Shown: positions 5,482 through 64,000 of the stretch, in pieces
Numbering within the stretch: the first letter of the stretch is position 1
Layout of the letters: each line of letters starts with the position of its first letter
From: Deltaproteobacteria bacterium
Lineage (GTDB): Bacteria > Myxococcota > Kuafuiibacteriia > Kuafuiibacteriales > Kuafuiibacteriaceae
Length of the DNA stretch: 64,000 bases
Reading direction: 5' to 3'
NCBI GenBank assembly: GCA_040218735.1
Contig: JAVJQW010000042.1
Coordinates: forward strand, 192,001 to 256,000
Position numbers and translations under genes: made by a program
The notes under the pieces: model-generated
Database searches by the model: none
Told to the model about the DNA's origin: nothing
What the model saw: the letters and a program-made list of their open reading frames with translations, nothing else

Positions 5482-5502
5482 TTTGCATCGTTGCCCTAAC
5501 GT

Positions 5503-7113
5503 CTAGTCCTCGGGAACAGCGCCATCAGGAACACCCAGGGACGTTAGGAACATCGAAAAGTCGGTCTCCAGCGCAATTCTCCTAGTCAAGATAAATCGGT
5601 CTACGTCGCCGTCGCCCAGACACTCCCATGCTCGATCATTAATTAGATGACTTGCGCGGTATGACTCCGATCGGAAAAGCTCGTGTTCAAACCTGACGCC
5701 GCGCCGTCTCGCTTCCAGCGCTGCAACGAAGCCGTCTTCTTTTTCCAGTGAGAGCAAGAATCTGTTTCCGGGATCTCGAGCTAGGTCACCGCCAGACGTC
5801 GCGACGCCACGAATGAGGGCTCTCGCAGCTTGTGATTCCAACCGAGATATTAGATCCTCGTCCTCTTGCTGGTACCTGAACAACTGTAACGCGAGGGCCT
5901 TGATTCGTGCGTGACGTGGGTCAGAAGTATTCGGTAGCTCAAGCGGCTCCCAGGCCGAGACTGACCAGGGCCAGGCTACATCTGCGCGCGAATCGAGCGC
6001 CTGGAGGTACCGCAGCATGCTCGACAATCGGTACCCGCTCATTCCTGAGAATGATGCTTGTGCAGTCGTCCACCAGAACCACCGGACCAGAGCCGAACGG
6101 AGGGCTTTCTTCGGTTGGCGCGGATGGCGTCGTAGCACGTCTGCGAGCAGCACGGCCTGATACGAGTATGGCAGCAAGCCGAGCCCCACGATCCCAAACT
6201 GCTTGCGCATGAACCTAGCCGTGCGCTCGAAGCCGGTAATCACGTCATCGAGAACGCTCGGGTCGCGCCTGAGTGCCTCGCCGAGCTCGCGACCCGAACT
6301 GGTATAGATATCCATATCAAGCGCGGCTCGTATTCCCGCCAGGATATACGACTCATCGATCCCGCCCCACCCCAATCGGCCCAGTCGTTCCTTTGCAGTG
6401 TCGAGCCGTTCTCTCAACGAGTAGTCTTCTTGCCAGGTGAGGGCAGCTACAAGATCCAGATCAGACATCTTCGTACCTTCTGTATTCAGAAGGCCGAACG
6501 TCCTAATCGCTTCGTCGACAGCGTCGGTAACAACAGGAACGATTGGAATCTTGTACTCGCGTACTGCCCGCGCGATTCGATCACTTACCTCAACAAGTTC
6601 GTCCGCATCATCGCCATCAAGGGAGCGCTGAAACCGAAGTAGCGCTACGCTATCCAGGATCAGTCGTCCGTCTAACACGAACTTCATTTCGCCTTGGTCT
6701 ACGTCATCCAAGAACGTCCAGTTCCGTCTACGAAGGTCATAGCCGAGGGCCCACCGTCCACCGTCCCGATGGTCCCTAATGTTGGCCTCCTTCGGTGACC
6801 GGAGCGCAGCAAACAGCGTTGACAGTCGCTGAAAACCATCCAGTAGGTATTGCCTCCCCGGACTCTTGCTGCGAGGCACTTCGTAGGGGCCGATTTGCTT
6901 TCTGAAATTGACGTGGATGTCCGTGCGCCATACCATCACACTGCCGATCGGGTATCCCTTCGACACGCTGTCAAGCAGGCTGAGGCGCTGGTCGCCGCTC
7001 CACCGATCGGGTCTTTGGAATTCAGGCACAACAAGTTCGCCTCGGCCTATCTGCTCCAGTACCTGGTATAGGTACTGGATCTGAGGTTCACTTGCGTAGG
7101 AAAGTGTCGACAT
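5503..7113 (-). CDS. DUF262 (GmrSD N-terminal, ParB/Srx-like) domain protein
   Basis: VPEFQRPDRW, LLDSVSKGYPIGSVMVW, YLLDGFQRLSTL, FGLLNTEGTKMS are the DUF262 FQR / DGQQR / FxxxNxxG motifs. Confidence 0.85.
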   Translation of the reverse strand: MSTLSYASEPQIQYLYQVLEQIGRGELVVPEFQRPDRWSGDQRLSLLDSVSKGYPIGSVMVWRTDIHVNFRKQIGPYEVPRSKSPGRQYLLDGFQRLSTLFAALRSPKEANIRDHRDGGRWALGYDLRRRNWTFLDDVDQGEMKFVLDGRLILDSVALLRFQRSLDGDDADELVEVSDRIARAVREYKIPIVPVVTDAVDEAIRTFGLLNTEGTKMSDLDLVAALTWQEDYSLRERLDTAKERLGRLGWGGIDESYILAGIRAALDMDIYTSSGRELGEALRRDPSVLDDVITGFERTARFMRKQFGIVGLGLLPYSYQAVLLADVLRRHPRQPKKALRSALVRWFWWTTAQASFSGMSGYRLSSMLRYLQALDSRADVAWPWSVSAWEPLELPNTSDPRHARIKALALQLFRYQQEDEDLISRLESQAARALIRGVATSGGDLARDPGNRFLLSLEKEDGFVAALEARRRGVRFEHELFRSESYRASHLINDRAWECLGDGDVDRFILTRRIALETDFSMFLTSLGVPDGAVPED

Positions 7114-8099
7114 TAAAGTGCCCCGAGAATAAAGTGGAAAATTTCTCCTAGCTCGTCGTTAATCTTGAACTGTTCGCACATGACTTCATTGGCGTACTTA
7201 CAGGCGCGCCACACCGAGTTTCCCAGTGGGACCTTCAAGTCTCGCAACTCCTTCCTGCTAACGTTGTAGTTCTCGTCTTCAGCTTTAGGGATACCGTCTT
7301 TCAGGTGGTGATGTCTCTGCACTCTTGCGGGAAGACGGCTATACACTTCGATATGTCGGTGCTGTTCCTCGGTCGCAGGCATCTCTTTCGCCCAAGTCGC
7401 GATCGCGGGAGGTGGAATGTAGTTCTCGGCCATGCGGCGTGAAAGGACTCTGATTCGGATATTCGCCGCTCTGGCGGCCTCTACAGCTTTCCTTACGGCG
7501 TCGGGAAGATTGTTCGTGCAGCGCTCATACTCTTCGCTAGACGTTAGCCATGGTGACGTTGTATCGCTATCGGTAATAACAACCGTCCGGAGACGTCGCA
7601 ATCCGTCGCTCCTTTCGTCCTCCAGTCGCCGTGCGACGTTCGTCACACCACCGGCGTTGCTCCATCTTACGAAGTCCCTGCTACGTGCCGTCTTCCAGTT
7701 TCTTCGATGGGTCGGTGGAACGAGCGCATCAAGAAGCCCTCCGTCGCTCGATTCGTCCTCTACGAGAACCTCAAGCGGTGTCATCCACAGGGCAACAGCA
7801 TCGTCCAAAGTCAAGACGGGGGGCGTACTCCCCCAGTCGGATCGGTCAGGATCTCCAACCTGAACGGTGAAAGTACTTGGGAACCTCGCATGCCGTCTCT
7901 TCGCGTGATTGATCGCGCGGCGGAAGGTGTCTCGTTCTTCCTCGTTTCGACTCGACAGCCAATCGTCAAACACAGCCCTTCCGTCTGGTACCACGATAAG
8001 GTTGTGCCGCCCGCGAGACGCTAGAGCGACAAGCGTCACGAGGGATATACGCCGTTCAGTGCGGCATTCGACCGCTGTTCGCAGTAGTTCAATCCGCAC
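7113..8099 (-). CDS. TOPRIM-like (OLD/DUF4435/AriB-type) putative nuclease
   Basis: Motifs VLVEDESSD, NAGG, VVITDSD (DxD), RRMAENY; GTG start at 8099 with TGGAG RBS overlaps the ATPase stop; TAA stop overlaps the DUF262 ATG (TAATG). Confidence 0.68.
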   Translation of the reverse strand: MRIELLRTAVECRTERRISLVTLVALASRGRHNLIVVPDGRAVFDDWLSSRNEEERDTFRRAINHAKRRHARFPSTFTVQVGDPDRSDWGSTPPVLTLDDAVALWMTPLEVLVEDESSDGGLLDALVPPTHRRNWKTARSRDFVRWSNAGGVTNVARRLEDERSDGLRRLRTVVITDSDTTSPWLTSSEEYERCTNNLPDAVRKAVEAARAANIRIRVLSRRMAENYIPPPAIATWAKEMPATEEQHRHIEVYSRLPARVQRHHHLKDGIPKAEDENYNVSRKELRDLKVPLGNSVWRACKYANEVMCEQFKINDELGEIFHFILGAL

Positions 8100-9300
8100 T
8101 CGTGGAGCTCCAATTCGACCTAGCCTCGCTGAGCCGCTCCGCCAAATCAGATGCCTCCGAAAAAATGTCTGGCGGAAGATGGTGGTCCGGTACACCTTTG
8201 TCAGTGAGTTCGACTCTCTGCGCGATGCTGCGACCATCATCCAACTGATGCACCCAGTGGATCGCGACCTGACTAGGGAGTAGTTTTTCTCTCGCCACGG
8301 ACAAGAGTACCGAAAGCAGGAAATGCTCCGAATGCGTCTCGACGAGGATTCTGGTCTGAGGATTTCTACGCACAGCCTTCACTATCCACGCAGTAACCTG
8401 TTCGTGAAGTCGTGGATGAAGGTGCAGTTCCGGCTGTTCCAACGCCAGAATGCGGGGGCCAGAGTCAGTCATTGACTGTGCTACAGAGACAGCCACTGGC
8501 AGCACTTGGGCGAGGCCTTCGCCCGTGTCCGCCAGATCGACGCTAAGCGCTGGCTGCGCGGGGGGCGAGATCCTAATTCGAAAATCGTCTTCCACCTCCT
8601 CAATCGAAAGCCTAAGGTTCAGGTGGTTGTGGAAAAAATCGACGACTAGCTCAAAGACCTCTGACCCATCCAACTTGGCATAGGCCAGTACGCGAGCCGC
8701 GTCCTCCCCATCCGGCCGCATTGGGCCATTTGGTCGGCCACCGAACGGAATTCGCCGTGGGACACGCGCACGTAGCGAATCGAGCCACTGAGATCGCTCG
8801 AGGTCCGCGTGGGCGGGCATGTCCCAGCGAAGATTCGGCCCGGACACTGATAGTCCCTCGATGCTCAGATCGATGGTTTCATCTCTTCCACTACCTATGA
8901 GTCTATACTGAGTAAGTCCCTGCGTAGTCCATTCAAGGCTGCTGGTTCCAGTATGGTCGGTGCGGACGATTTTCTCGACAACCTGCCTGCGCAGGTCCGG
9001 CAAGTCTCGAATCGTGTACGTCGCCTTCGACTCCTCATCCTCGACGATGACTGCGAGGGAAAGGCCGTTGTCCATGCGAGACTTGACGTCCGAGAATGTC
9101 GCTTCGCGTAGCGACGGTGCTGCAAAGGAGATTGGTGGGCCACCTTCCCGCTGCGTCTGCTGTAGGAGAGGAACAAGTCGGAGGAGCGCACTCTTGCCGG
9201 AGCTATTGTAGCCGAACAGCAGAGTGAACGGTCGAACGTCGACCTGTGTGGGGTCCACGAATCCTCGGTAGTTCTCAACGCCTAGAAGCTGCAACGACAC
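8089..9300 (-). CDS. ABC-type ATPase (AAA_21/AAA_15 family, DUF3696-like C-terminus)
   Basis: VENYRGF; Walker A GYNSSGKS; signature-like DTGEGLAQVLP; Walker B ILALEQPELHLHP; H-loop ETHSEH. Confidence 0.9.
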   Translation of the reverse strand: MSLQLLGVENYRGFVDPTQVDVRPFTLLFGYNSSGKSALLRLVPLLQQTQREGGPPISFAAPSLREATFSDVKSRMDNGLSLAVIVEDEESKATYTIRDLPDLRRQVVEKIVRTDHTGTSSLEWTTQGLTQYRLIGSGRDETIDLSIEGLSVSGPNLRWDMPAHADLERSQWLDSLRARVPRRIPFGGRPNGPMRPDGEDAARVLAYAKLDGSEVFELVVDFFHNHLNLRLSIEEVEDDFRIRISPPAQPALSVDLADTGEGLAQVLPVAVSVAQSMTDSGPRILALEQPELHLHPRLHEQVTAWIVKAVRRNPQTRILVETHSEHFLLSVLLSVAREKLLPSQVAIHWVHQLDDGRSIAQRVELTDKGVPDHHLPPDIFSEASDLAERLSEARSNWSSTSAD

Positions 9301-43644: not shown

Positions 43645-43806
43645 GCGATCGCGTCGCGCGCGCAACTCTTCTTGCATCGCGACGAGCGCGTCCGACGCCT
43701 CGGTGGGGACTTCAGCGCCGTGGAAGACAGCGAGGCGGAGCGCCGCTTCCGATTCCGCGAACACCTTCGTGAGCTCTTCGGTGCTCATGTCTTGGAAGCG
43801 ATTCAT
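43633..43806 (-). CDS. Small acidic helical hypothetical protein (57 aa)
   Basis: ATGA overlap with the stop of the upstream gene; host-like codon usage. Confidence 0.55.
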   Translation of the reverse strand: MNRFQDMSTEELTKVFAESEAALRLAVFHGAEVPTEASDALVAMQEELRARRDRSEG

Positions 43807-45410
43807 GCGTACCACTCCGCGGCGGAGCGCATCGAATCGGCGACGCGGCTCCGAATGAGTTTGGCGTAGTTGCAGTCCTTCTCGGATTTGTAGTCGAGCG
43901 GGACGTGGAAGAACGGCACGGCGCGATCGTCGTCGCCGGGGAGGTGCACTCGGACGTTGCCGTCGTCGAGTTTGCTCACGGTGAGTTGCCCGAGGTCGAC
44001 GTCGTAGCTATTCGCGATGCGTTCGAGTGCTGCGGGCTCGAAGACCACGCCGCCCTTCGCGAGCTCGTGATCGACGGCCTCCGTGACGGCGCGGAGCGCG
44101 CCGTTGGTTCGCTCGGCGGCGGCTTCGTACATCGGGCGGAGCTCGTCGCTCACGAGCGACGCGCAGTCGATGTACGAGATGCCGCAGGAGAACGCGGAGT
44201 GCAGCACGGTGTCGTCCTGGAACATCGTGCCGGGGCCGCTCATCAGTTGGATCTTCCCGACGCCGTCCGCCATCCCGTACTGCGCCGAGTCGGCGTAGAT
44301 GACGGTCATCGAGGCGTCGAACCACGGGGTGTTCGGGTCGGGGACGGGCCATTCGTGGACGTCGATCAGCGCGAGGAGCGAGCGCTCGACGTCGTCGAAC
44401 ACGATGGAGCGCGCGCCGGTCTCGGGATCGACGTGGGTATGATCCGGTGACAGCGGCTGAGAGATCTTCGCTTGAATGGAGTCCAGCGCGGCGACCTCCT
44501 CCGGCGAGAACTTCTCCGAACGATCCATCCCCGGGAACGAGCCGCGCTTGAAGCCGATCATCATCGGCGCGAGCTTGCCGAAGAGCCCCGGGACACCGAC
44601 CTGGTGCTCCTTCGTCGCCTGTACGATCCCGGCGATGCGCTCCGGTGGCATGTCCGCGTCGCCGCGCCGCGACAGGACGAGGTCCGCCGCGATGGCGCCG
44701 TGGATGTTGTGCGCGAGGAGCGTGTCGCCGAACTTCACGGAGTCCGAGAACAGCGACGCGAGGAGGGCGTCCTCGAGCTGAACGCCGTTCATGCCCTTCG
44801 CGATCGCGCCGTCGATCACCTGCGCCGACTCGTGCGCGATGTGGTTCCAGTTCTCGTCGCTCGCCTTTGCGTCGAAGGGCCGGAGGTCCTGCAGCGAGGT
44901 CCAATACTCACCGAGCGTCTGTTTGATGCGGTTGCGCTGCGTGCGCGTGAGCGGGAGCTTCGGGTCGTCGATCTTGTCTAGGAGCGACATCCGGCCGGTG
45001 CCGTCGGTGCGCTGGACCATGAAGTCGGCGAGCACCGGCTCCACCCGCGCCTGCGCGCGCACGCGTCCCGTGCGCCCGCCGTCCGGCCACATCGAGGCGA
45101 CGCTCGGGATCTTCTCGCCGATCGGCCCGTTGCGTGCGGGGTGCGATCGAACGGAGTCGAGGAGCTTCGTCGGGTCGCGGCCCTTCGTCGCCTCCGACGT
45201 GAGCCCACGGAGCTGCACGTCGAGGGGCGACCGCTGTTCGAGCCCGGGCCGCTCGTAGTGCGCGAACGTCTCGGGCCGCAGCGCGAACAGTCGCCCCGGA
45301 GGCGCGTGCTGGAACGGGCTCTGGAAGAGGTACGGGTGCTGCGCCTCGGCCGGCGCCGCGTCGGTCGCCGGAAGCTGCGTCGGCGTGCCGGTCTTGCCCG
45401 TGCGAATCAC
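43803..45410 (-). CDS. Hypothetical protein with HD-like metal-dependent hydrolase signature
   Basis: Spaced motifs WNHIAHE, LFSDSVK, AHNIHGA, KEHQVG, YADSAQY; strong host-like codon bias. Confidence 0.6.
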   Translation of the reverse strand: MIRTGKTGTPTQLPATDAAPAEAQHPYLFQSPFQHAPPGRLFALRPETFAHYERPGLEQRSPLDVQLRGLTSEATKGRDPTKLLDSVRSHPARNGPIGEKIPSVASMWPDGGRTGRVRAQARVEPVLADFMVQRTDGTGRMSLLDKIDDPKLPLTRTQRNRIKQTLGEYWTSLQDLRPFDAKASDENWNHIAHESAQVIDGAIAKGMNGVQLEDALLASLFSDSVKFGDTLLAHNIHGAIAADLVLSRRGDADMPPERIAGIVQATKEHQVGVPGLFGKLAPMMIGFKRGSFPGMDRSEKFSPEEVAALDSIQAKISQPLSPDHTHVDPETGARSIVFDDVERSLLALIDVHEWPVPDPNTPWFDASMTVIYADSAQYGMADGVGKIQLMSGPGTMFQDDTVLHSAFSCGISYIDCASLVSDELRPMYEAAAERTNGALRAVTEAVDHELAKGGVVFEPAALERIANSYDVDLGQLTVSKLDDGNVRVHLPGDDDRAVPFFHVPLDYKSEKDCNYAKLIRSRVADSMRSAAEWYA

Positions 45411-45513
45411 TGCTCGATGATACGGCGCGAGGGCGCGGTGTTACATGGGGTATCGGGCCGGCCGTACGCCGAGATTCGACCTTCGGTCAGGGACGCTGCG
45501 CTTCGACGCACCG

Positions 45514-47523
45514 CTACGGGGAGCAGACGTTCACGTACACGGCCTGGCCGTCCAGGTCGCCGTACTGCAGCGCCGTGCAGGTCAGGCCCGCGGGGCAGTC
45601 GGCGTCGGTGGAGCAGGTTCCGGCGCAGGTGTTGGTCGCGTTCAGGCAGAAGCCGCCGCGGCAGTTGCTGCCGTTGGCGTCGGCGCACGTCGTGCCGTCG
45701 GGGGCGGTGCCGTGCGTGGCCTGCACGCAGGCCTTCACGAAGTTGACCGCCCACTCGAAGCACACGCCGAAGCTGACCACGCAGACGCTGAAGTTGACCG
45801 GGGCGCAGACGTTGCCGTTCGGGCAGTCGGCCGAGCTTCCGCACACGTCGCCGCAGGTGCCGTTGCCGTAGCAGACGCCGCTGCGGCAGTCGGTGAGCGC
45901 CGAGCACGTCGAGCCGTTGGCGCCCGCGCCAAGCGGGCCGTTGCAGCTGCCGATGTAGCGGTCTGGCGTCCACTCGTACCACTGGCAGGCGCCGCCGCCG
46001 CAGTCGCTGTCGTTGTCGCAGACGTCGACGCACTGGTTGTTCGGGCAGAAGTACGACTGGCACTGGTCGTGCGCCGAGCACGCGCCGCCGTTCGGGGTCG
46101 CGAACGTCCCGGCCCCGAGGTGCGAATCGAGCACGCACATCTTCGAGCCGAAGAAGTCGAAACACGTGAACCCGCCGGGGCAGTCGGCGGTGTTGCCGCA
46201 CGCCGAGATGCAGCGGAAGCCGAGCGGGTTGCCGAGGTCGAAACACACGCCGGACTGGCAGTCGGTGTTCGCGGTGCACGTGCCGTTGAGCGGCTGCGCG
46301 CCGTTCATCGTGCAGCGCCCCGTCTGCTGGTTGCAGGTCTGGCCCATCGGGCAACCGTTCGCGAGGCAGCTCGGCTCGCACTGGCCGTTGACCGTGTTGC
46401 AGATCGTCGACGGTGGCTGACAGTCCGCGTCGTTCATGCAGACCGGGCCGCCCGGATCGCAGCGCCCCGTCGTCATGTTGCAAGTCGTGTTGCCGCTGCA
46501 GACGATGCCGCCGATCTCTCCGCACCCGCCGATGCACTGCCCGGCCTCACACACCGCGGCGGGCGGGTTGCAGTCCGAGTCGATCGTGCACGGGCCCTGC
46601 ACCATCACGCAGCGCCCGCTGTTGCCGTCGCAGACGGTGCCGGTCGGGCAGTTCGGCGCGCCCGGCTGCGCGCAGCCCGGGACGCACGATCCGCTCTCGC
46701 AAATCTGCGCGGGCGCGCCGCACTCGACGTCGGTCGTGCAGCCGCCCGACGCTTCGCAACGACCCGTCGCCGGGTTGCAGACGTTCCCACCCGTGCACAC
46801 GAGGCCGCCGACCTGAGCGCAGCCCGGGATGCACTGCATCGATTCGCAGATCGTGTTGGGCGGTGCGCACTCCGTGTCGTTCGCGCAGGTGACCTGGCCC
46901 ATCTCGCACCGGCCCGTGCCGGTGTTGCAGAAGCTGCCGAGCCCGCACGTGATCGGCGAGCCGGGCGTGCCGCAGCCGGCGACGCACTGCATCCCCTGGC
47001 ACACGGTCTGGGGCGGCATGCATTGGGCGTCGCCCGTGCACGCGGTCATGGACGGATCGATGCACCGGTTCTGCACACAGGTCGTCGGCGAGAGGCAGTG
47101 GCCGGGCTCGTAGCAGTCGACGCACTGCTGTGAATTCGGGTCGCAGTGTTTGCCGGCCGCGACGCAGTCGGCTTCCGCGGTGCAGCTCCGGTTGCCCGGA
47201 ACACACACGCCGGTGGTCGTGTTGCAGCGCAGGTCCGACGGACACTCGTTGTCCATCGAGCAGTTCACGATCTGCTGCTCGGCGCACGTGTTGGTCGCCG
47301 GATCGCAGAACTCGCCGATCGGGCACTCGTCATCCGTGGTGCAGCCGCCGAGCTGTTGCGCGCCGACGCACGCGCCGCCGATGCACTGCTGAGCCGCGGC
47401 GCAATCGTTGTTCGTCACGCAGCCGGTCGACTCCGAGCTGCAGCCGGCGAGGCCGCCGACGAAAACCAGAAGGGCTGCAAACCCCGTGATGTGCCCCAGG
47501 TTTTCCGCCATCGGTCGTCTCAT
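45514..47523 (-). CDS. Cys-rich repeat surface lipoprotein
   Basis: Lipobox LAGC; many CxxDxxC...C...GxC repeats; start could be 47511. Confidence 0.85.
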   Translation of the reverse strand: MRRPMAENLGHITGFAALLVFVGGLAGCSSESTGCVTNNDCAAAQQCIGGACVGAQQLGGCTTDDECPIGEFCDPATNTCAEQQIVNCSMDNECPSDLRCNTTTGVCVPGNRSCTAEADCVAAGKHCDPNSQQCVDCYEPGHCLSPTTCVQNRCIDPSMTACTGDAQCMPPQTVCQGMQCVAGCGTPGSPITCGLGSFCNTGTGRCEMGQVTCANDTECAPPNTICESMQCIPGCAQVGGLVCTGGNVCNPATGRCEASGGCTTDVECGAPAQICESGSCVPGCAQPGAPNCPTGTVCDGNSGRCVMVQGPCTIDSDCNPPAAVCEAGQCIGGCGEIGGIVCSGNTTCNMTTGRCDPGGPVCMNDADCQPPSTICNTVNGQCEPSCLANGCPMGQTCNQQTGRCTMNGAQPLNGTCTANTDCQSGVCFDLGNPLGFRCISACGNTADCPGGFTCFDFFGSKMCVLDSHLGAGTFATPNGGACSAHDQCQSYFCPNNQCVDVCDNDSDCGGGACQWYEWTPDRYIGSCNGPLGAGANGSTCSALTDCRSGVCYGNGTCGDVCGSSADCPNGNVCAPVNFSVCVVSFGVCFEWAVNFVKACVQATHGTAPDGTTCADANGSNCRGGFCLNATNTCAGTCSTDADCPAGLTCTALQYGDLDGQAVYVNVCSP

Positions 47524-47688
47524 GGTCGGCCTTTCAGCATACTCAATGCATCGGTTGATCGGCGCGTCCTGGTGCGTCGGATCCCGCCGCGTGTCTCAGC
47601 CTCTCCAAACCCGCGAAGTCAGGCAAGTTTTCGGGCCGACCGTTCGTCTTGACCGCGTTTCGGGTCGGTCCTAGGGTGGCGCCGCGTC

Positions 47689-55749: not shown

Positions 55750-56520
55750 TCAAGGACGCAGCGACGTCCCGCCGTCGATGATGATCGTCTGCCCCTGAAT
55801 CATGTTCGCGCGGTCCGAAGCCAAGAACGCGATCGTGTCCGCGACGTCCTCCGGCGCGATGTTCCGATCCACCATCGAACGCTGACGACGCTCCTCGAGG
55901 ACCGCCTCCACGCCGGGCAGCGCACGCAGCGAGCCCGTATCGACGACGCCGGCCCTCACGCAGTTCACGTTGATCCCGCGGTGCCCGAGCTCCAGCGCCG
56001 CGTGCCGCGTCATCGACTCGATCGCCGCCTTGCACGCCCCGATCGCGCCATACATGGGGAGCGCGCGCTCCGCGCCCCAGCTCGACACCGTGACCACCTT
56101 CGAACGCTGCCCGTCGTTCGCGCGCGCCTCCAACAGCGGCGCTGCCTTCTGCGTGAGGAGCATGAACGCCCGGACGTTCAGGTGAATGGCGTAATCGAGC
56201 TGGCTGCCGGACGTCTCGAGCAACGGCCTGAAGCCACCGCCCGCCGCGTTCGACACCAGGATGTCGAGCCCGCCGAGCTGATCCGCGACGGCCTCGACGA
56301 GGTTCGTGGTGTCATCCTCTTCGGACAGGTCCGCGCGCACGACCAAGGTCCGGCGCCCCATCGCGAGGATCTCCGCGCCGACCTCCTCCGCGTTGCGTCG
56401 CGCGTTCACGTAGGTGATCGCGACGTCCGCTCCAGCCCGCGCGAGCGCGAGCGCGGCGGCGCGACCGATGCCGCGTGAGCCTCCAGTGACGAGTGCGAGG
56501 CGCCCCGAAAGGTCGATCAC
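55750..56520 (-). CDS. SDR oxidoreductase, FabL-like enoyl-ACP reductase
   Basis: TGGSRGIG, LVSNAA, catalytic Y-x6-K (YGAIGACK), GQTIIIDGG; GTGA overlap with the PPTase gene. Confidence 0.82.
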   Translation of the reverse strand: MIDLSGRLALVTGGSRGIGRAAALALARAGADVAITYVNARRNAEEVGAEILAMGRRTLVVRADLSEEDDTTNLVEAVADQLGGLDILVSNAAGGGFRPLLETSGSQLDYAIHLNVRAFMLLTQKAAPLLEARANDGQRSKVVTVSSWGAERALPMYGAIGACKAAIESMTRHAALELGHRGINVNCVRAGVVDTGSLRALPGVEAVLEERRQRSMVDRNIAPEDVADTIAFLASDRANMIQGQTIIIDGGTSLRP

Positions 56521-57128
56521 GCTGCGCTCCCGACGCGCGCCCAGCACATCGTTCGCCCGCGGTGCACGATCGATCCAACCTCGCGTCGCAAGACGGTCGG
56601 GACCTCGAGATCCGAGAAGCTACGCCTGAACCCCACGCCGAGGTACTTCGCATAGGCTTCCTTCTCGCACCACAACGTCGTCGCGCTCAGATCACGATCC
56701 GCCGCGGCCTCGATGTGGCGCCGCTCGTCACGTGTGAACGCCAACGACAGGAAGCTCTCGTCGCGAGGCTCCACCACCTCGGCGTCTACGCCGACCTGCG
56801 CCTCGGACCACGTCGCCATCGCCAGGTCCGCGGAGTGGGAGATCGACAAACACCCCACCGGCCGCGCCCCGATCCACGCGACGGGCCGCCCCGACGTCGG
56901 ACCCTCCGCCTCCGCCCGGATCTCGAGCTGCGTGAACGACAAACCGGTGTGCCGCTGGAGGGCACGCTTCGCAGCCATGCGCCCCGCGAGCCAGTCACGT
57001 CGGCGCTTCAGGTAACGGAGCGCCGCGAAGTCCGCGGCCTCTCGCGCCGTCAACGCCGACACCAACCGCTCACGCGCGGCCCAGACCTCGTCGATCGACA
57101 ACGCGATGATGTCGTTGGGGAGCTTCAT
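56517..57128 (-). CDS. 4'-phosphopantetheinyl transferase (Sfp-type)
   Basis: WLAGRMAAK, GRP, LSISHS, VGVDAE, WCEKEAYAK; ATGA overlap with the PKS. Confidence 0.9.
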   Translation of the reverse strand: MKLPNDIIALSIDEVWAARERLVSALTAREAADFAALRYLKRRRDWLAGRMAAKRALQRHTGLSFTQLEIRAEAEGPTSGRPVAWIGARPVGCLSISHSADLAMATWSEAQVGVDAEVVEPRDESFLSLAFTRDERRHIEAAADRDLSATTLWCEKEAYAKYLGVGFRRSFSDLEVPTVLRREVGSIVHRGRTMCWARVGSAA

Positions 57129-60100
57129 GTCGTCGGCACCACCTGCGCGCGATAACGTCGTACCGCGACGAGCGGCCCGTGCGCCGACATCACCTCGAAG
57201 TCGGCGACCAGCGCATCGTCCGTGACCTCCACGAAACGCACCGCGAGACGAACCCGCTCCCCCGCCGCCTCGAGCACGCGTTTACTCACGTCCACACGAC
57301 CGAACCCCGCGGGCAACGCGACCACGCCGTGCAGGATGCGCCCGAGCATCCCGACCGCCTGGAGGCACCCGTCGAGTAGCGCCGCGGGGAGCTGCCATCG
57401 TCCGGCGTCGGAGCCCGGAACGAGCGAGGTCGGCGCGGGCACGATCAGCTGCGCGACGCCACCGCCGTCCCCGGCGGACACGCCTTCCAGGCACCGGAAC
57501 ACCGGACCGTGGAAGATCATTCGCGAGCCGGGCGTGCGGTCGATGCTCTTGGGGTACGGATAGACGATCGTCTCACCTTCGGCGGCGACGTCGAGCGACG
57601 CGACGGGGGCCTGCGAGGGGACCCGCCGTCCGCGCACGAACACCCGCGCGGGCTCCAACACGACGCCGTCCTGCTTGCGCACCGTCGAGGCGATCGACAA
57701 CGCGTCGCCCTCCCTTCGCGCGAGCACCGTAACGGCGCCGTCTTCGTCGACCTTGAGCGGCCGCTCGATCTGCACGTCGGCGAGCGACCAGTGCTCACCC
57801 GGATCGAGGTTCGACAGCTCGGACATGAGCTCCAGGCTCACCACCGCCGGGACGATCGGCGTCGCGCCCATGCGGTGCTGATCGAGGAATGGCTCCGTCG
57901 CGTCGAGCGTGCGTTCGATCGTCGCGCCGTCCGCGTCGGCGGTGACGAGGTGATCGATCATCGGGCTCGCCGCCGCGCGGCGCGCGCGCTCCAACCATTT
58001 CGGACGATCGCTCTCCGCCACGAGGAGTCGATCCATGTCCAACGCGTCGAGGCGCTCGCAGATCGTGATCTCCGACTCCGGGAGCCCCGCCCACAGCTCG
58101 CGCACGAGGTGATTCGCACCCTCCGCCGGCGTCATGAACGCCTGCCCCGCCTTCTCCAGGAACGCCTTCGCCGACGAGCGCGCCGCGAGGCCGACCTCGG
58201 AGAACGCCGCCCAGGCGATCGCGGTGACGTGGACGTCGTGCGTCGCACGGTACGCGGAGAGCAACCGCGCCTCGGCTTCGTTTGCGATGGCGTAGTCGGT
58301 CTGTCCGTGGCCACCGAAGCGGCCCGACACCGAAGAGAACCCGACGACGTGGGTCAGCGGATCGTCCTTGGTCAGCGCGAGCAGATGGACGAGGCCGTCG
58401 ACCTTGCCGCCGAGCGTGCGCTCGAACAGCGCGTCGGTCTTCTTGTCGAACGGCTTGGCGACCTCGACGCCCGCGCCGTGCAGCACGCCCTCGATCGGCC
58501 CGCGCACGCGTGTCTTCGTGAGCACCGCGGCGAGCGCTTCGCGGTCGGCGATGTCCACCGCGTAGTAGACGACGCTCGAGCCGCGCTCGGCGATCTGTCG
58601 GAGCGTCGCGTCGATCTCCAGCGACTTGTCGATCGACTCACACCGCTGCTTCCACGCGATCGGCGAGAAGCCGCCCTCCGACTTCATCGCCTGCAAGATG
58701 TCTTGCTTCAGCTTGTCGAGCCCCGCGTCGTCGAGCGCGCGCCACTGCGCGAGCGTCGCCTCCTCCGGGAGGGGGTGGCGCCCGAGCAGGACGAGCCGCG
58801 GTTGGTAGAGCTCCGCGAGGCGGATCGCCATCTTCGCGGTCACGCCACGCGCGCCGCCGGTCACGATCCACGTCGCGGGCAGGCGGTCGGGTGAAGCCGC
58901 CGGCTCCGCGCGCCGCTCGGCCATCTTCAGCACGAGGCGCTTGCCGCGCAGCAGACCCACCTCCAGCGGACCGCCGGGCGCATCGAGCTCGGCGATCAAC
59001 GCCTCCGCGACCTGCGACGGAGACTCCGAAGGGCTCGCGTCGAGGGCCTGTACGGAGAGCCCGTCGAATTCGCGGCGCACGGACTTCAGGAGGCCGAGGA
59101 GCCCCCCGCCGTCGCCGGTGCCCTGAGCGGCGTTGTCGAACCCGAGTGCGCCGCCGAGGAACGTCACCCCGAACACGGTGCCGTCCTTACGGTGCGGCGC
59201 CCACGCGCGGAGGAGCTCGAACGGAGCGAACAGCGATCGAGCGCGTCGTGTCGACCAGGTCGCGGCGTCGACCGCCCACGCGGCCTTGGCTTCGACCGTC
59301 GAGACGATCCCGATCGCGTCGACCGTGTCGATGCCCAACGTATCGAGTCGTCGCGTCGCGCGCGTCGCGTCGGCCTCGACGTGGACGTCGCTGCCTCGCG
59401 CCGTCATCGCCGCGGCGATCGCCTGGACGTGCGCGCCTTCGCCCACGAGCAGCAGTCGCTTCGGCGTGAAGGTTCGCGACGCCGAGCGCCGCGGCGCATC
59501 GACGACCCGCACGACCTGACGCCGCATCACCTCGGTGAGCTCGACGACGCCCGCGCCGCTCTCGGTGAGGTCCTCGACGCGTTCGATCCGCGACGGTGTC
59601 CGCCGCGTCCCGTACTCGACCGTGAGGAAGTCGACGTCTTCCGTAGAACCCGGCGGGAGCACGCGGTCCGTGACGTGGAGTCGACGCGAGCCCGGCTCGA
59701 CGACGAGGCTCATCACGTTGTCCACGCGTCGCACAGTGTTCATCGTCGCGTGCACGACTTCGCGCCCGCGGCCGTGATCGTGACGGTCACGCAGGAGCTG
59801 CTTCGCGCGGTCCACCGTCATCGGGCCCGGCTCCGAGACGAGCTCACACGCGCGCTTCTCGCGGAGCGCGGAGTGCGCAGGGACTTCACCGCCGTCGGCC
59901 GGTGCGAGGCGAGAGTGGTTGGTGCTGGTGAGCTCGCGCCCGACCTCCTCGCGCGCGACGATCGTGTCGTCGTCGTACTCGATGTAGTGGGCGCGGTCGG
60001 TGTCGGCGTCCGAGACGAGGACGCTCCAGCGCCCCGCCTTGTGTGCGGACTCGACCATCTGCACCGCCTGCTCGATGGAGGAAGCCCCCTCCAGGATCTG

Positions 60101-63100
60101 CTTCACGAGCATCGGGTGCGGTCGCCCGGTCGGGAGCGCCGTGGCCTCGGGGCCGTCGAGGAGGGTGGTACTCGTGACGGTGAGGCCCGAGTCGGTCACG
60201 CCGTTGAGGCCGGCGATCTGACCGACGAGCGAGAAGTACACCGTGGTGCGGTTCGGCATCGGGCCGTCGGTGCGACGCCGAATCTGCGCGACGCGCGGGT
60301 GGACGCCGTCGAGGTGCAACAGCAGCGGGGAGTCTTCGTTGATGCAGTGGAGCATCGCGCCGTCGTTCTCGCGGGCGAGGCGCACGGTCTGCGTGCAGCC
60401 GCTCGTGAGCGACGGGAACAGCGCGGCGTCGAGGTTGTACGCGAGCAACACGAGCTCGTGCACGCCGGTCGCCTCCGCGACGCCGCGCAGCTCGTCGAGG
60501 CTGTCTTCGTCGAACACGCCGTAGAGGCGCTTCGTCGTCTCGGGGAGGGCGAGGAGCGCGAGGCCTTCGCGGCCGACGAACGTCTGGTAGCGATCGAGCA
60601 CCTCGAGGATCGGGTCACGCATCGCTTCGCCGTGCTGTCGCCCGATCTCGCGCGCGGTGCCGTCGAAGCGAAGCACCGTCACCGGGCGCGCGGTGTTCGC
60701 GGGGACGGTCGTACGCGGCGCGGGGATCTCGATACCGATGGCGTCGAGCGCTCCGACCGGCGCGGGTTTGGCGAGACCGGTGAACGCCGGCTTCGCGAGG
60801 CCAACGACGGCGTCGGCGTCGATCGGGATCGCCGGCGCCAGATCACGTTGGCGGAGATCGAGCGTCGGGACCTGCGTCCCCGCCGCCGAGCGTTCGTCCT
60901 CGTGCGCGGGCTTCGCGGGCGCGGGGCGGCTGGAGGGGGTGCCGTCCGAAGCCGGGATCGACTTCGCGGGGGCCCCCTCGGGCGGCGTGTTCGTCGGCGC
61001 GCTCGCGACGGTCGGCGCCTTCGGTGCGGCCGGCTTCTGCGTGCGCTTCTTGCTCAGGTCGACCATCGGCACCGCGACGGCGGGCTTCGCGGGGGCGGGC
61101 TCGGCGCGCTGCGTGGTGAGCTGCTTGTCGACGTACTCGAGCACGTGCCCGAGCGTCGGGAAGTCACGGAGCGAGAGCTTCTCGTCGGCGCGCAGGTCGT
61201 ACCTGTCGCGCACCTTGCCGAGCACTTGCGCCTGCTTGACCGTGTCGATGCCGAGGTCGGCTTCGAGGTCCGCGTCCATCTCGATGATGTCCGGCGGGTA
61301 GCCGGACTGCTCGCAGATCGCGTCGAGGAGGAACGCCTTCACTTCGTCGCGGCTCGGGAGATCCGACGCGACCGCGGGGGTCGGGAGCGGCTCGGCCGCG
61401 GGCGGCTCGGCGGCTGGGGGCTCGACTTCGGCCGTGGGGGCCTCGGCGCGTGGCGCCGCCGCCGCGGCCGGCTCGGCGCGCGGTGAAGACACCGCGGGCG
61501 CTTCGCTCACGGCCTCGGGCGTCGGCAGCTGCGAGTACCGCTTCTCCGTCGCCCACATGCTCTCGAGGAACGTGATGAGGCTCGGTCGCGTCTTCTCCCA
61601 GAACGCGTCGAAGCCGGGCTCCGACAGAAGACGCTCCGCCTCGGCTCCACTCAGTAGATCGATTCGGCTGCCGTCCCCCGCGTTCTCGGCGGCGCGTTCC
61701 AGCGTCGTGATCATCGCCGACACGCGCGCCAACGACCACGCGCCCGCGCGGTTCTTGTCGTCCACCGAGGTCACGTACGCACGGTCGCCCGCGATGCGTT
61801 TGGTCAGGCCCGTCAGCACGGCGCGAGGGCCGCACTCGACGAACGCGTCCACGCCGTCGTCGAGGAGCAGCTCGACCTGGCGCACGAAGCGCACCGGCTT
61901 GGTCAGCTGCGCGACGAGCGAGGCGCGGATCGTCTCGGGGTCCGACTCGAACTTCTGCGACACACTCGACAGGTAGGGCACCGACGGCGCCGCGAGCGGG
62001 ATCTTCGCGAGCCCCTCTGCGAGCGCGTCCGCGGCGGCGCCCATGTACGTGGAGTGGAACGGACCGGGCACGTCGAGCGCCACGTGTTCGAACGAAGCCG
62101 CGGCGAACGCGGTCGCCGCCTTCGCCATGCCGTCCAGCGTCCCCGCGACGACGATCTGATCCGGCGCGTTGACGTTCGCGACCTCGGCGCCTTCGACCGT
62201 CGCCAGGATCCGCTCGACGTCTTCGAGCGACGCCGTCACCGACGCCATCGACCCCTCGACCACGTTCCGCTCGATCGCGCGCGCGCGCATCGAGGTCGCC
62301 TCCAGCGCGTCCTCCAGCGACCACGCGCCCGCCGCGACCAGCGCGGCGTAGTCACCGAAGCTGTGCCCCGTGACGACGTCCGGCGCGAGCCCGAGGGTGC
62401 GCACCGCTTCGAACGCCATCACGTCGGCGGTGAGCACGAGCGCCTGCACCGCGAACAGCTCGAACGGCACCGGCGCTCCGTCGCGGAACACCGGCGACAA
62501 CCGCGCGCGGCGGTGTGCGTCGAGCCACTCGTCCACGCGCGTGACGATCGCGTCGACCTCCGGGAGCGCTGCGGCGAACGCACCCATCATCCCGGCGTAC
62601 TGCGAGCCCTGTCCGGAGAAGAGCATCGCGAGCTTCGGCCCGCGCGAACGACCGCGCGTCACGAACACGCCCTGCTTCTCGAGGAAGTCACGCGTCGCCG
62701 ACGTCAACCCGGCTTTCAACGCCGCGCCGATCGCACGCCGAAGATCCGCGTCGTCCGTCGCGGCGATCCCGAGCGTCACCGCGCCCTGCCCGACGTGTTC
62801 GGACCACGTCGCCGGGTCGATCGAACCGAGCCGCGCGAGGACCGCGTCCTCCGTGGCGTCGCTCAACGTGTGCACGTGCATCGTCTTCCTCTCGGGCTCG
62901 TCGCCCGCCGTACCGGGGTGCTCGACGATCGCGTGGTAGTTCACGCCCGCCAGCCCCATGCTCGAAACCGCAGCGACGCGCGCGCCCTCCCAGGGCGTGG
63001 CGTGGGCGTTCACGACGAGCGCGTCGCCGAAGTCGTGGTCCGGGTGCGGGGCCTCGAACCCGCGCGTCGGAGGGATGGTCTCCAGGTCGAGCGCCATCGC

Positions 63101-64000
63101 CGTCTTGATCATCGCGATGACCCCCGCCGCGCCCTGCGTGTGGCCGACGTTGCTCTTCACGCTGCCGAGCGTGACGGGGCGGTCGCGTTCGATGCCTTCG
63201 AGGTAGGTCGCGCGCACCGCGGCGACCTCGGTCGCGTCACCGAGCGGCGTCGCGCCACCGTGGCACTCGACGAACTGCACACGCGACGGATCGAAGTCCC
63301 CCTGCGCGATCGCACGCCGCATCGCGCGCGCGAGGCCCTTCGGGCTCGGCTTGTAGAGGCTCTTCTTCTCGCCGTCGCTCGACGAGCCGATGCCGCGCAC
63401 GATCGCGCGGATCGGATCGCCGTCGCGCTCGGCGTCTTCGAGGCGCTTGAGCACGCAGACGCCGGCGCCTTCGCCGGGGATGAAGCCGTCGGCGCGGTGG
63501 TCGAACGGTCGCGGCACGCTGCTGCGCGACAGCGAGTAGAACTGGCAGTACGCCTCGTAGCGCTGCACGCGCATCGCGCGGTCGCCGCCGCCGTGGATCG
63601 CGATGTCGACGACGCCGGATCGCAGCAGCTCACACGCCGCCTCCATCGAAGCGAGCGACGAAGCGCAGGCCGCGTCGAGCGCGTACGTCGGGCCCATGAA
63701 GTCGAGGGTCTTCGCGGTGCGGGAGGCGAGGGTGCTGGAGGAGAAGCTCCCGCTGGAGTCTTCGTTGATCGACGGGTAACGCTTCCGCAGCGCGACGAGG
63801 ATCTCTTCGATGAGCGCGTCGTCGCCGGTGCGGCCGAGGGCGTCGGCGGTGACGTCCGCGAGCTCCTGCGATCGAATCGCGAGGGCGAGGGCGAGGGCGT
63901 AGTCGCTCCCGAACACCGTGCCGACGGTGGTCGAGACGCGCTCGCGGTCGATCTTGGTGAGGTCGATCTTCGCGTCGTCGAACGCGTCGAGCGTCGACTC
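57125..64000 (-). CDS. Iterative type I PKS / PfaA-like synthase, 5'-truncated by the window: KS-AT-ACP-C45 Ntn-hydrolase-KR-DH
   Basis: Frame is open to the window edge; KS DAACASS, ECHG, KSNVGH; AT GQGSQ, GHSFG, PFHS; ACP LEADLGIDT; C45 GTAREIGRQHG..SGCT..NED..NG; KR TGGARGVT, GQTDYA; DH FLDQH..P, LLDGCLQ. Confidence 0.93.
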   Translation of the reverse strand, partial: ESTLDAFDDAKIDLTKIDRERVSTTVGTVFGSDYALALALAIRSQELADVTADALGRTGDDALIEEILVALRKRYPSINEDSSGSFSSSTLASRTAKTLDFMGPTYALDAACASSLASMEAACELLRSGVVDIAIHGGGDRAMRVQRYEAYCQFYSLSRSSVPRPFDHRADGFIPGEGAGVCVLKRLEDAERDGDPIRAIVRGIGSSSDGEKKSLYKPSPKGLARAMRRAIAQGDFDPSRVQFVECHGGATPLGDATEVAAVRATYLEGIERDRPVTLGSVKSNVGHTQGAAGVIAMIKTAMALDLETIPPTRGFEAPHPDHDFGDALVVNAHATPWEGARVAAVSSMGLAGVNYHAIVEHPGTAGDEPERKTMHVHTLSDATEDAVLARLGSIDPATWSEHVGQGAVTLGIAATDDADLRRAIGAALKAGLTSATRDFLEKQGVFVTRGRSRGPKLAMLFSGQGSQYAGMMGAFAAALPEVDAIVTRVDEWLDAHRRARLSPVFRDGAPVPFELFAVQALVLTADVMAFEAVRTLGLAPDVVTGHSFGDYAALVAAGAWSLEDALEATSMRARAIERNVVEGSMASVTASLEDVERILATVEGAEVANVNAPDQIVVAGTLDGMAKAATAFAAASFEHVALDVPGPFHSTYMGAAADALAEGLAKIPLAAPSVPYLSSVSQKFESDPETIRASLVAQLTKPVRFVRQVELLLDDGVDAFVECGPRAVLTGLTKRIAGDRAYVTSVDDKNRAGAWSLARVSAMITTLERAAENAGDGSRIDLLSGAEAERLLSEPGFDAFWEKTRPSLITFLESMWATEKRYSQLPTPEAVSEAPAVSSPRAEPAAAAAPRAEAPTAEVEPPAAEPPAAEPLPTPAVASDLPSRDEVKAFLLDAICEQSGYPPDIIEMDADLEADLGIDTVKQAQVLGKVRDRYDLRADEKLSLRDFPTLGHVLEYVDKQLTTQRAEPAPAKPAVAVPMVDLSKKRTQKPAAPKAPTVASAPTNTPPEGAPAKSIPASDGTPSSRPAPAKPAHEDERSAAGTQVPTLDLRQRDLAPAIPIDADAVVGLAKPAFTGLAKPAPVGALDAIGIEIPAPRTTVPANTARPVTVLRFDGTAREIGRQHGEAMRDPILEVLDRYQTFVGREGLALLALPETTKRLYGVFDEDSLDELRGVAEATGVHELVLLAYNLDAALFPSLTSGCTQTVRLARENDGAMLHCINEDSPLLLHLDGVHPRVAQIRRRTDGPMPNRTTVYFSLVGQIAGLNGVTDSGLTVTSTTLLDGPEATALPTGRPHPMLVKQILEGASSIEQAVQMVESAHKAGRWSVLVSDADTDRAHYIEYDDDTIVAREEVGRELTSTNHSRLAPADGGEVPAHSALREKRACELVSEPGPMTVDRAKQLLRDRHDHGRGREVVHATMNTVRRVDNVMSLVVEPGSRRLHVTDRVLPPGSTEDVDFLTVEYGTRRTPSRIERVEDLTESGAGVVELTEVMRRQVVRVVDAPRRSASRTFTPKRLLLVGEGAHVQAIAAAMTARGSDVHVEADATRATRRLDTLGIDTVDAIGIVSTVEAKAAWAVDAATWSTRRARSLFAPFELLRAWAPHRKDGTVFGVTFLGGALGFDNAAQGTGDGGGLLGLLKSVRREFDGLSVQALDASPSESPSQVAEALIAELDAPGGPLEVGLLRGKRLVLKMAERRAEPAASPDRLPATWIVTGGARGVTAKMAIRLAELYQPRLVLLGRHPLPEEATLAQWRALDDAGLDKLKQDILQAMKSEGGFSPIAWKQRCESIDKSLEIDATLRQIAERGSSVVYYAVDIADREALAAVLTKTRVRGPIEGVLHGAGVEVAKPFDKKTDALFERTLGGKVDGLVHLLALTKDDPLTHVVGFSSVSGRFGGHGQTDYAIANEAEARLLSAYRATHDVHVTAIAWAAFSEVGLAARSSAKAFLEKAGQAFMTPAEGANHLVRELWAGLPESEITICERLDALDMDRLLVAESDRPKWLERARRAAASPMIDHLVTADADGATIERTLDATEPFLDQHRMGATPIVPAVVSLELMSELSNLDPGEHWSLADVQIERPLKVDEDGAVTVLARREGDALSIASTVRKQDGVVLEPARVFVRGRRVPSQAPVASLDVAAEGETIVYPYPKSIDRTPGSRMIFHGPVFRCLEGVSAGDGGGVAQLIVPAPTSLVPGSDAGRWQLPAALLDGCLQAVGMLGRILHGVVALPAGFGRVDVSKRVLEAAGERVRLAVRFVEVTDDALVADFEVMSAHGPLVAVRRYRAQVVPTT

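Follow-up and report, generated by a model that had tools for sequence, protein, structure and literature searches.

We analysed a 64,000-nucleotide stretch of DNA (the window) from a Deltaproteobacteria bacterium of the family Kuafuiibacteriaceae, phylum Myxococcota (assembly GCA_040218735.1, contig JAVJQW010000042.1, positions 192,001 to 256,000), a high-GC source with a GC content of about 0.65-0.72 across the 64 kb. At one end of the window, on the minus strand, lies a gene for a large synthase of the polyketide synthase (PKS) type, which continues past the window end and is followed by two smaller genes (Table 1). Once the adjoining sequence of that contig is included, the full-length open reading frame (ORF; P0002) encodes 2866 aa (306 kDa), and its first 575 aa, comprising the first ketosynthase (KS1) and the start of the second (KS2), fall outside the window. 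By Pfam and NCBIfam, the domain order is ketosynthase (KS)-KS-acyltransferase (AT)-acyl carrier protein (ACP)-C45-ketoreductase (KR)-dehydratase (DH). The subject of this report is the C45 domain (P0004), 360 aa encoded at 59609-60688 on the minus strand. The original prediction, made from the sequence alone, had placed a self-cleaving C45 acyltransferase of the N-terminal nucleophile (Ntn) hydrolase type between the ACP and the KR, and had proposed that the synthase cuts itself into two chains and uses this domain for chain release onto an amine or alcohol acceptor. The position of the domain is borne out by the Pfam order of the window part (KS, AT, PP-binding, AAT, KR, DH), and all six motifs that had been listed for it are found in the synthase frame where they had been placed, including the Cys codon at 60395-60397.

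The identity of the domain rests on several kinds of comparison. The NCBIfam model NF040521 (C45 family autoproteolytic acyltransferase/hydrolase) matches over model positions 2-313 of 313 with an E-value of 9.7e-40 and a score of 136.8 bits (cut-off 85), and Pfam PF03417 (AAT) scores 32.3 bits against a cut-off of 23.2. By these scores the domain is confirmed as a genuine match, far above chance. A phmmer search of the single domain against the PDB sequences gave 0 matches. A profile of 25 C45 domains against the same sequences found isopenicillin-N acyltransferase (IAT; 2x1d/2x1e and 2x1c) at E 1.6e-21, with weaker matches to acid ceramidase (E 1.5e-8) and NAAA (E 2e-5). In the profile alignment, the Gly-Cys pair (SGCTQ) falls on the processing site of IAT, Gly102-Cys103 (DGCTT); N117 and D119 of the HCINED motif fall on IAT Asn119 and Asp121, TNH falls on TNH, and the GTPxExGxxHG and EElRGvA motifs match as well. 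The residues C98, N117, D119 and R276 are invariant across the 25 diverse domains.

An AlphaFold2 model of the domain, built from the 25-sequence alignment, reached a pLDDT of 91.2 and a pTM of 0.91. The only place at which pLDDT drops below 50 over at least 3 residues is 92-94, directly before Gly97-Cys98, and a beta-strand starts at residue 99. The top Foldseek match of this predicted model is the IAT precursor 2x1c (E 3.4e-17, TM 0.74-0.75); 2x1c, 2x1d and 2x1e together lead the list at probability 1.00 and TM 0.71-0.75, followed by uncleaved acid ceramidase and NAAA, and then by bile-salt hydrolases and penicillin V acylase. In the predicted model, the domain has the alpha-beta-beta-alpha fold of Ntn hydrolases. 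We regard its assignment as an Ntn domain of the isopenicillin-N-acyltransferase type as practically certain, and to judge from its residues it is complete and apparently catalytically competent.

Table 1. Features of the synthase gene and the two genes that follow it, with per-domain conservation in the 30-member subclade described in the text (identity measured to the query)
Feature	Position	Strand	Details	Mean identity (%)	Invariant columns (%)
Synthase, window part (P0001)	57125..64000	-	2291 aa; ORF list, translations, Pfam, NCBIfam
KS2, cut by window end	62822..64000	-	PF00109/PF02801/PF16197; DAACASS active-site Cys motif, as in KS1	58	17
AT, malonyl-type	61799..62623	-	PF00698, E 2e-37; TIGR00128 FabD match; GHSFG motif	52	16
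Single ACP	61130..61333	-	PF00550, E 1.8e-5; motif DLGIDTVKQ
Pro/Ala-rich linker, ACP to C45	60689..61105	-	2/139 invariant columns in clade	17
C45 alpha part, would-be pro-segment	60398..60688	-	97 aa, 10.7 kDa; ends in Gly (codon 60398-60400)	58	16
FDGTAREIGRQHG motif	60629-60667	-	in synthase frame
ELRGVAEA motif	60470-60493	-	in synthase frame
SGCT motif	60392-60403	-	Cys codon TGC
C45 beta part	59609..60397	-	263 aa, 28.8 kDa; starts with putative nucleophile Cys; contains HCINED, GLNGV, STNH	56	17
HCINED motif	60332-60349	-	with invariant Asn and Asp
GLNGV motif	60197-60211	-	in synthase frame
STNH motif	59915-59926	-	in synthase frame
Structural pre-KR region and KR	58196..59608	-	PF08659, E 6.8e-32, P0001 residues 1709-1934; YAIAN	pre-KR 43; KR 57	pre-KR 6; KR 16
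DH, PKS-type, C-terminal domain of the protein	57128..57949	-	PF21089 and PF14765; stop codon 57125-57127	47	8
Linkers				17-31	1-2
Sfp-type phosphopantetheinyl transferase (PPTase)	56517..57128	-	PF01648, E 1e-13; start overlaps synthase stop by 4 bases
Short-chain dehydrogenase/reductase (SDR), FabL-like	55750..56547	-	PF13561, E 3.7e-62; NF005975 FabL 271.8 bits, under cut-off 328

The same architecture, for which the original prediction had suggested a search, is found in other bacteria. A search with the C45 part of a large protein collection, limited to proteins of 1576-5016 aa, returned 41 matching clusters among 7042 candidates; all are PKSs with the domain at the same position, and by their source names they come from Myxococcota or 'Deltaproteobacteria' metagenome-assembled genomes, Acidobacteria and Planctomycetes. 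The predicted Gly-Cys processing site is invariant in all of these homologues (41/41). A HMMER scan of 50%-identity representatives gave 416 proteins at E <= 0.001, of which 85 reached E <= 1e-30, and in the best matches the domain mostly sits inside proteins of more than 1000 aa. Among 165 domains that cover the nucleophile column, from 185 collected proteins, Cys is present in 130 (preceded by Gly in 126 of the 130) and missing in 35; for proteins of at least 1000 aa the count is 101 of 123, and the Cys is present in all sequences that reach more than 308 bits with the hidden Markov model of the clade. Within a phylum sample of 401 genomes, 30 matched at E <= 1e-10. Only in the family of the window does that sample contain the domain embedded in a PKS (open frames of 2757-2910 aa), in 6 of 19 other genomes besides its own; the remaining 23 matches are distant (24-33% identity, frames of 451-790 aa).

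To the homologues we added the results of a KS-KS search and kept only those proteins of 2300 aa or more that have two KS domains at the N-terminus (n = 103, the tandem-KS set). In a FastTree phylogeny of the KS-KS region, a quick tree of a collection that carries a bias from how it was assembled, the window protein falls in a clade of 38 (support 100), 36 of which carry the domain with its Cys and two of which have no C45 domain. A subclade of 30 around the window protein (support 98) has the Cys in 30 of 30. Within that subclade, both parts of the C45 domain are conserved to the same degree as KS2, AT and KR, and more strongly than DH and the linkers (Table 1); the domain thus evolves in this lineage as catalytic domains do, unlike a spacer.

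The rest of the synthase has the features of an iterative type I PKS or of a fatty acid synthase (FAS)-like enzyme, with KS, AT, ACP, KR and DH on one polypeptide, two DAACASS motifs and GHSFG, and with a threonine in the ACP as the caveat. The best whole-protein model is TIGR02813 (PfaA) at 908.9 bits, under its cut-off of 1010.1; there is one ACP and no tandem array, and no pfaB/C/D-like partners adjoin the gene. Judged from its sequence, the synthase is PfaA-like in its working and lies outside the PfaA family. It opens with two full KS domains in tandem, both with the DAACASS motif, and the KS part beyond the window lies at L009:11002-12726 on the minus strand (G000:C67).

A neighbourhood comparison across six PKS-bearing genomes from the family of the window defines what travels with the PKS. 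The PPTase gene adjoins the PKS in 6/6, one of them with a 1.8 kb shift and an S15 peptidase gene in between, and the SDR gene follows the PPTase in 5/6. Further neighbours are common only to the genome of the same genus and differ elsewhere, and the genes beyond the SDR gave no family match. The SDR is probably, from its family matches, a trans-acting enoyl reductase (ER), and on this comparison the conserved unit consists of the PKS, the PPTase and this probable ER. Together these three genes supply KS, AT, ACP, KR, DH and ER functions, with no thioesterase (TE), reductase or other acyltransferase in the module. The synthase itself likewise has no TE or reductase domain by Pfam, and DH is its last domain. 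Hence, the earlier statement that no TE or terminal reductase follows holds both for the protein and for the conserved PKS-PPTase-SDR module.

Upstream of the PKS, an ORF on the same strand (P0003) was considered and set aside as an antisense artefact of high-GC DNA, given that its translation is Arg-rich and of low complexity and that it failed the codon-position GC filter. Also upstream, divergent and outside the window (L009:14685-18746, plus strand), is a gene for a protein of 1353 aa that combines a TIR domain at its N-terminus with a STAND NTPase domain (PF13676, PF20703). It has the look of a defence or signalling protein and is not kept beside the PKS in other genera.

In the sole ACP, the Ser to which phosphopantetheine is normally attached in carrier proteins is replaced by a Thr (codon 61241-61243). 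Of the 38 clade members, 36 carry the Thr form alone, one combines a Thr-type with a Ser-type ACP and one has Ser; the other clade of the tree has 46 proteins with Ser and 0 with Thr, and 19 that fell outside the search pattern. The motif around the Thr is otherwise invariant, and in the Thr clade the PPTase gene travels with the PKS. From this pattern we suspect that the Thr is the pantetheine attachment site of a dedicated PPTase. A Thr-linked pantetheine arm would, if true, be unusual, and a literature search for Thr-bearing carriers gave nothing clear.

How the C45 domain would work can be outlined from IAT. An Ntn nucleophile works only after self-cleavage has freed its own alpha-amino group, and a Cys that is used in catalysis would therefore mean a cut chain. 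The folded domain would cut between Gly1776 and Cys1777 (full-length numbering), giving a 188-kDa chain (188.3 kDa; KS-KS-AT-ACP and the 10.7-kDa alpha part) and a 117-kDa chain (117.2 kDa; the 28.8-kDa beta part and KR-DH), and the two would stay together through the alpha/beta fold. In IAT, according to the available text of PMC2692852, a 40-kDa precursor cuts itself at Gly102/Cys103 in DGCTT and the resulting 11.5-kDa alpha and 28.5-kDa beta pieces remain together. The completed acyl chain would then move from its thioester on the ACP to the new N-terminal Cys of the synthase, forming acyl-S-Cys, and on to water or an amine, which would constitute chain release. IAT forms acyl-enzyme intermediates from acyl-CoA, likewise a pantetheine thioester (PMC2692852, available text). 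We consider it probable that the domain is catalytically active and therefore cleaved. Self-cleavage followed by Cys-mediated release of the acyl chain from the ACP is the most economical reading of its role, and we hold the chances of this reading to be about even. The fusion of a C45 domain into a PfaA-like synthase is real, and the original prediction is borne out in part; the mechanism that it put forward is plausible as a hypothesis.

Several observations weigh against this reading of the domain as the releasing enzyme. We infer cleavage, acyl transfer, the direction of transfer and the acceptor alike from sequence and a predicted model. Ser227 of IAT is reported as necessary for cleavage in the available text of PMC2692852, and its position in the profile alignment is an Asp in the C45 domain. 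The acyl-S-pantetheine substrate is only putative, because Thr takes the place of Ser in the ACP. Across the tandem-KS set, a full-length C45 domain with the Cys is present in 77 of 103 proteins; nine have a full-length domain without it (Gly in four, and Ala, Leu, Ile, Ser and Thr in one each), 11 have a partial domain and six have none. Nearly all of these losses fall in one 36-row part of the other, distant, mostly planctomycete clade, and the tree requires at least eight state changes, six of them forced by starred branches. Such repeated loss of the Cys in the distant clade weakens the argument that C45 is the necessary releaser, and lineages without the Cys or without the domain must release their product by some other route. 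In P0199 and P0206, the two C45-less members of the clade of 38, the ACP is separated from the pre-KR region by about 90 and about 15 residues, respectively, compared with about 540 in the window protein, which makes this a clean absence. A metagenome scan for the gene context of P0199 gave no locus. No TE appears for either in the precomputed Pfam lists. The synthase chassis can, judging from these two sequences, exist without the C45 domain.

Three other proteins, P0203, P0233 and P0235, are about 1750-1800 aa long and consist of KS-KS-AT-ACP with DLGIDTVKQ and then a helical tail, without C45, KR and DH; these may be split forms whose second half is in a separate gene. P0257 and P0245, which stop soon past the alpha part, were considered as genes naturally split at the Gly-Cys site and rejected, given that their tails after the alpha part have the look of an out-of-frame high-GC translation, and they are read as frameshifts.

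The losses bear on the possibility that the domain is an uncleaved, non-catalytic scaffold or docking element, for example one that spaces the ACP from KR-DH or aids dimerisation. Loss of the Cys, decay or deletion of the domain in 26 of the 103 tandem-KS proteins speaks for this possibility, and two near relatives lack the domain altogether. However, these same two relatives indicate that the chassis is structurally independent of C45. A scaffold would also have no use for an invariant Gly-Cys (41/41), Asn, Asp and Arg, and the domain is conserved like the catalytic domains, whereas the pre-KR region, which is truly structural, is far less so (Table 1). We consider a scaffold role improbable.

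The C45-less relatives also lack a TE, which leaves room for an unlinked release factor, and with it for a role of C45 at the other end of synthesis. As a loader of starter units, in analogy to the Cys-dependent SAT domain of fungal non-reducing PKSs, the Cys would take an acyl group from acyl-CoA and hand it to the ACP or to KS1, and release would fall to an unlinked enzyme. The extra N-terminal KS with its intact active-site motif could be a priming KS, and the natural donor of IAT is acyl-CoA, with acyl-enzyme forms documented in the available text of PMC2692852. However, C45 follows the ACP instead of standing at the N-terminus, no helper domain is needed for a KS to take its primer directly from acyl-CoA or acyl-ACP, and the conserved module has no acyl-CoA ligase or other starter-supply gene. 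The module would then also have zero release function. We give loading a small chance.

The likeness to acid ceramidase and NAAA, seen in the weaker profile matches and at Foldseek ranks 8-11, points to a third alternative, in which the domain is an editing or tailoring hydrolase that frees the ACP of stalled or wrongly primed acyl groups in the manner of a type II TE, or an amidase acting on a downstream N-acyl product. An accessory role of this kind would suit a domain that is dispensable in some lineages. It would still leave the conserved module without its main releaser, however, and the strict conservation across the clade exceeds what is usual for accessory editing, so that we see this role, too, as having only an outside chance. 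The ceramide-like lipid that the original prediction had offered as a possible product draws on a single analogy, the fold likeness to these same two enzymes, and may be read in that light.

Taking self-cleavage and acyl release as the preferred reading, its most specific form would be a self-splitting megasynthase, its two halves held together non-covalently, that off-loads its chain directly onto an amine, giving an N-acyl lipid with no TE, with the chain carried on a Thr-pantetheine ACP by means of the neighbouring PPTase. We regard this full scheme as doubtful; if true, both the self-splitting synthase and the Thr-linked pantetheine would be new to PKS/FAS enzymology.

Elsewhere in the window, a low-GC island at 5503-9300 on the minus strand (GC 0.56-0.61, compared with about 0.69 around it) holds genes for a restriction endonuclease of the GmrSD type (PF03235, E 2.1e-23), a 375-aa unknown protein and an Abi-type ATPase (AAA_15/AAA_21), and has probably been acquired as a defence island; a search of the low-GC stretch 5500-9300 gave no RNA listed in Rfam. 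Two minus-strand ORFs, 45514-47595 (693 aa) and 43803-45440 (545 aa), have third-position GC of 0.93 and 0.91, respectively, and no Pfam match, and the former has an unusual codon-position profile with GC1 < GC2.

Known routes of product release from PKSs, FASs and polyunsaturated fatty acid (PUFA) synthases involve thioesterases, reductases, condensation-type domains, acyltransferases of the AT or AGPAT kind and KS-like domains. To our knowledge, a self-cleaving Cys Ntn domain is absent from this repertoire. If the proposed release holds, it would represent a new release chemistry, and maturation by self-cleavage would be a rarity among megasynthases. With 416 matches, the family is large and spread over Myxococcota, Acidobacteria and Planctomycetes, and the copy described here offers a good experimental entry, being intact, strictly conserved in its clade and part of a compact three-gene operon. 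In the literature searched, with subscription journals and supplementary files outside the search, no paper was found on a C45 or Ntn domain inside a PKS, and the available text of PMC13291983 has 0 occurrences of C45, Ntn and peptidase. Automatic annotation does detect the domain, given that some database records are already named 'C45 family autoproteolytic acyltransferase/hydrolase'. A link to the N-acyl-tyrosine stieleriacines was considered because Stieleria encodes a homologue (P0045), and was dropped; in the available text of PMC12479983 their synthesis is ascribed mainly to NasY1, and 'PKS' has 0 occurrences.

Among lipid synthases, the 'Type J' secondary-lipid cluster of Planctomyces limnophilus consists of an ER gene and a KS-MAT-ACP3-KR gene, with an unknown product (Shulse and Allen 2011, PMC3098273, available text); that text makes no mention of a C45 domain, and 'peptidase' has 0 occurrences. 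With PfaA of the PUFA synthases, the synthase shares the order KS-AT-ACP-KR-DH, but it differs from PfaA in its extra N-terminal KS, in having one ACP instead of several and in the inserted C45 domain, and its tandem KS-KS also differs from the KS-CLF pairs of PUFA synthases. An AGPAT acyltransferase domain is reportedly fused to the myxobacterial Pfa3, as described by Gemperlein et al. in 2014. This would be a precedent for a lipid megasynthase that has an acyltransferase domain of its own, instead of a TE, for off-loading, although with another fold and another chemistry (acyl-phosphate-lipid O-acyltransferase, no self-cleavage) and at the C-terminus instead of mid-chain.

Among Ntn enzymes, acid ceramidase (ASAH1) and NAAA are self-cleaving Cys-Ntn lipid amidases with the same fold and the same alpha/beta self-processing layout (TM 0.70-0.76), and their substrates are long-chain fatty acyl amides. 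Unlike the C45 synthase domain, they are eukaryotic lysosomal hydrolases with no acyl transfer on a carrier protein, and identity is 12-15%. The closest known relative is IAT (PenDE of Penicillium chrysogenum; MEROPS C45), the best match by both profile and fold, with GCT, N-x-D, TNH and GTPxExGxxHG aligned and with an alpha piece of about 11 kDa and a beta piece of about 29 kDa in each, those of the C45 domain being predicted. However, IAT is a free 40-kDa fungal enzyme, whereas the C45 domain, at about 17% identity, lies within the chain of a bacterial synthase of 306 kDa, and its donor would be an ACP-bound chain.

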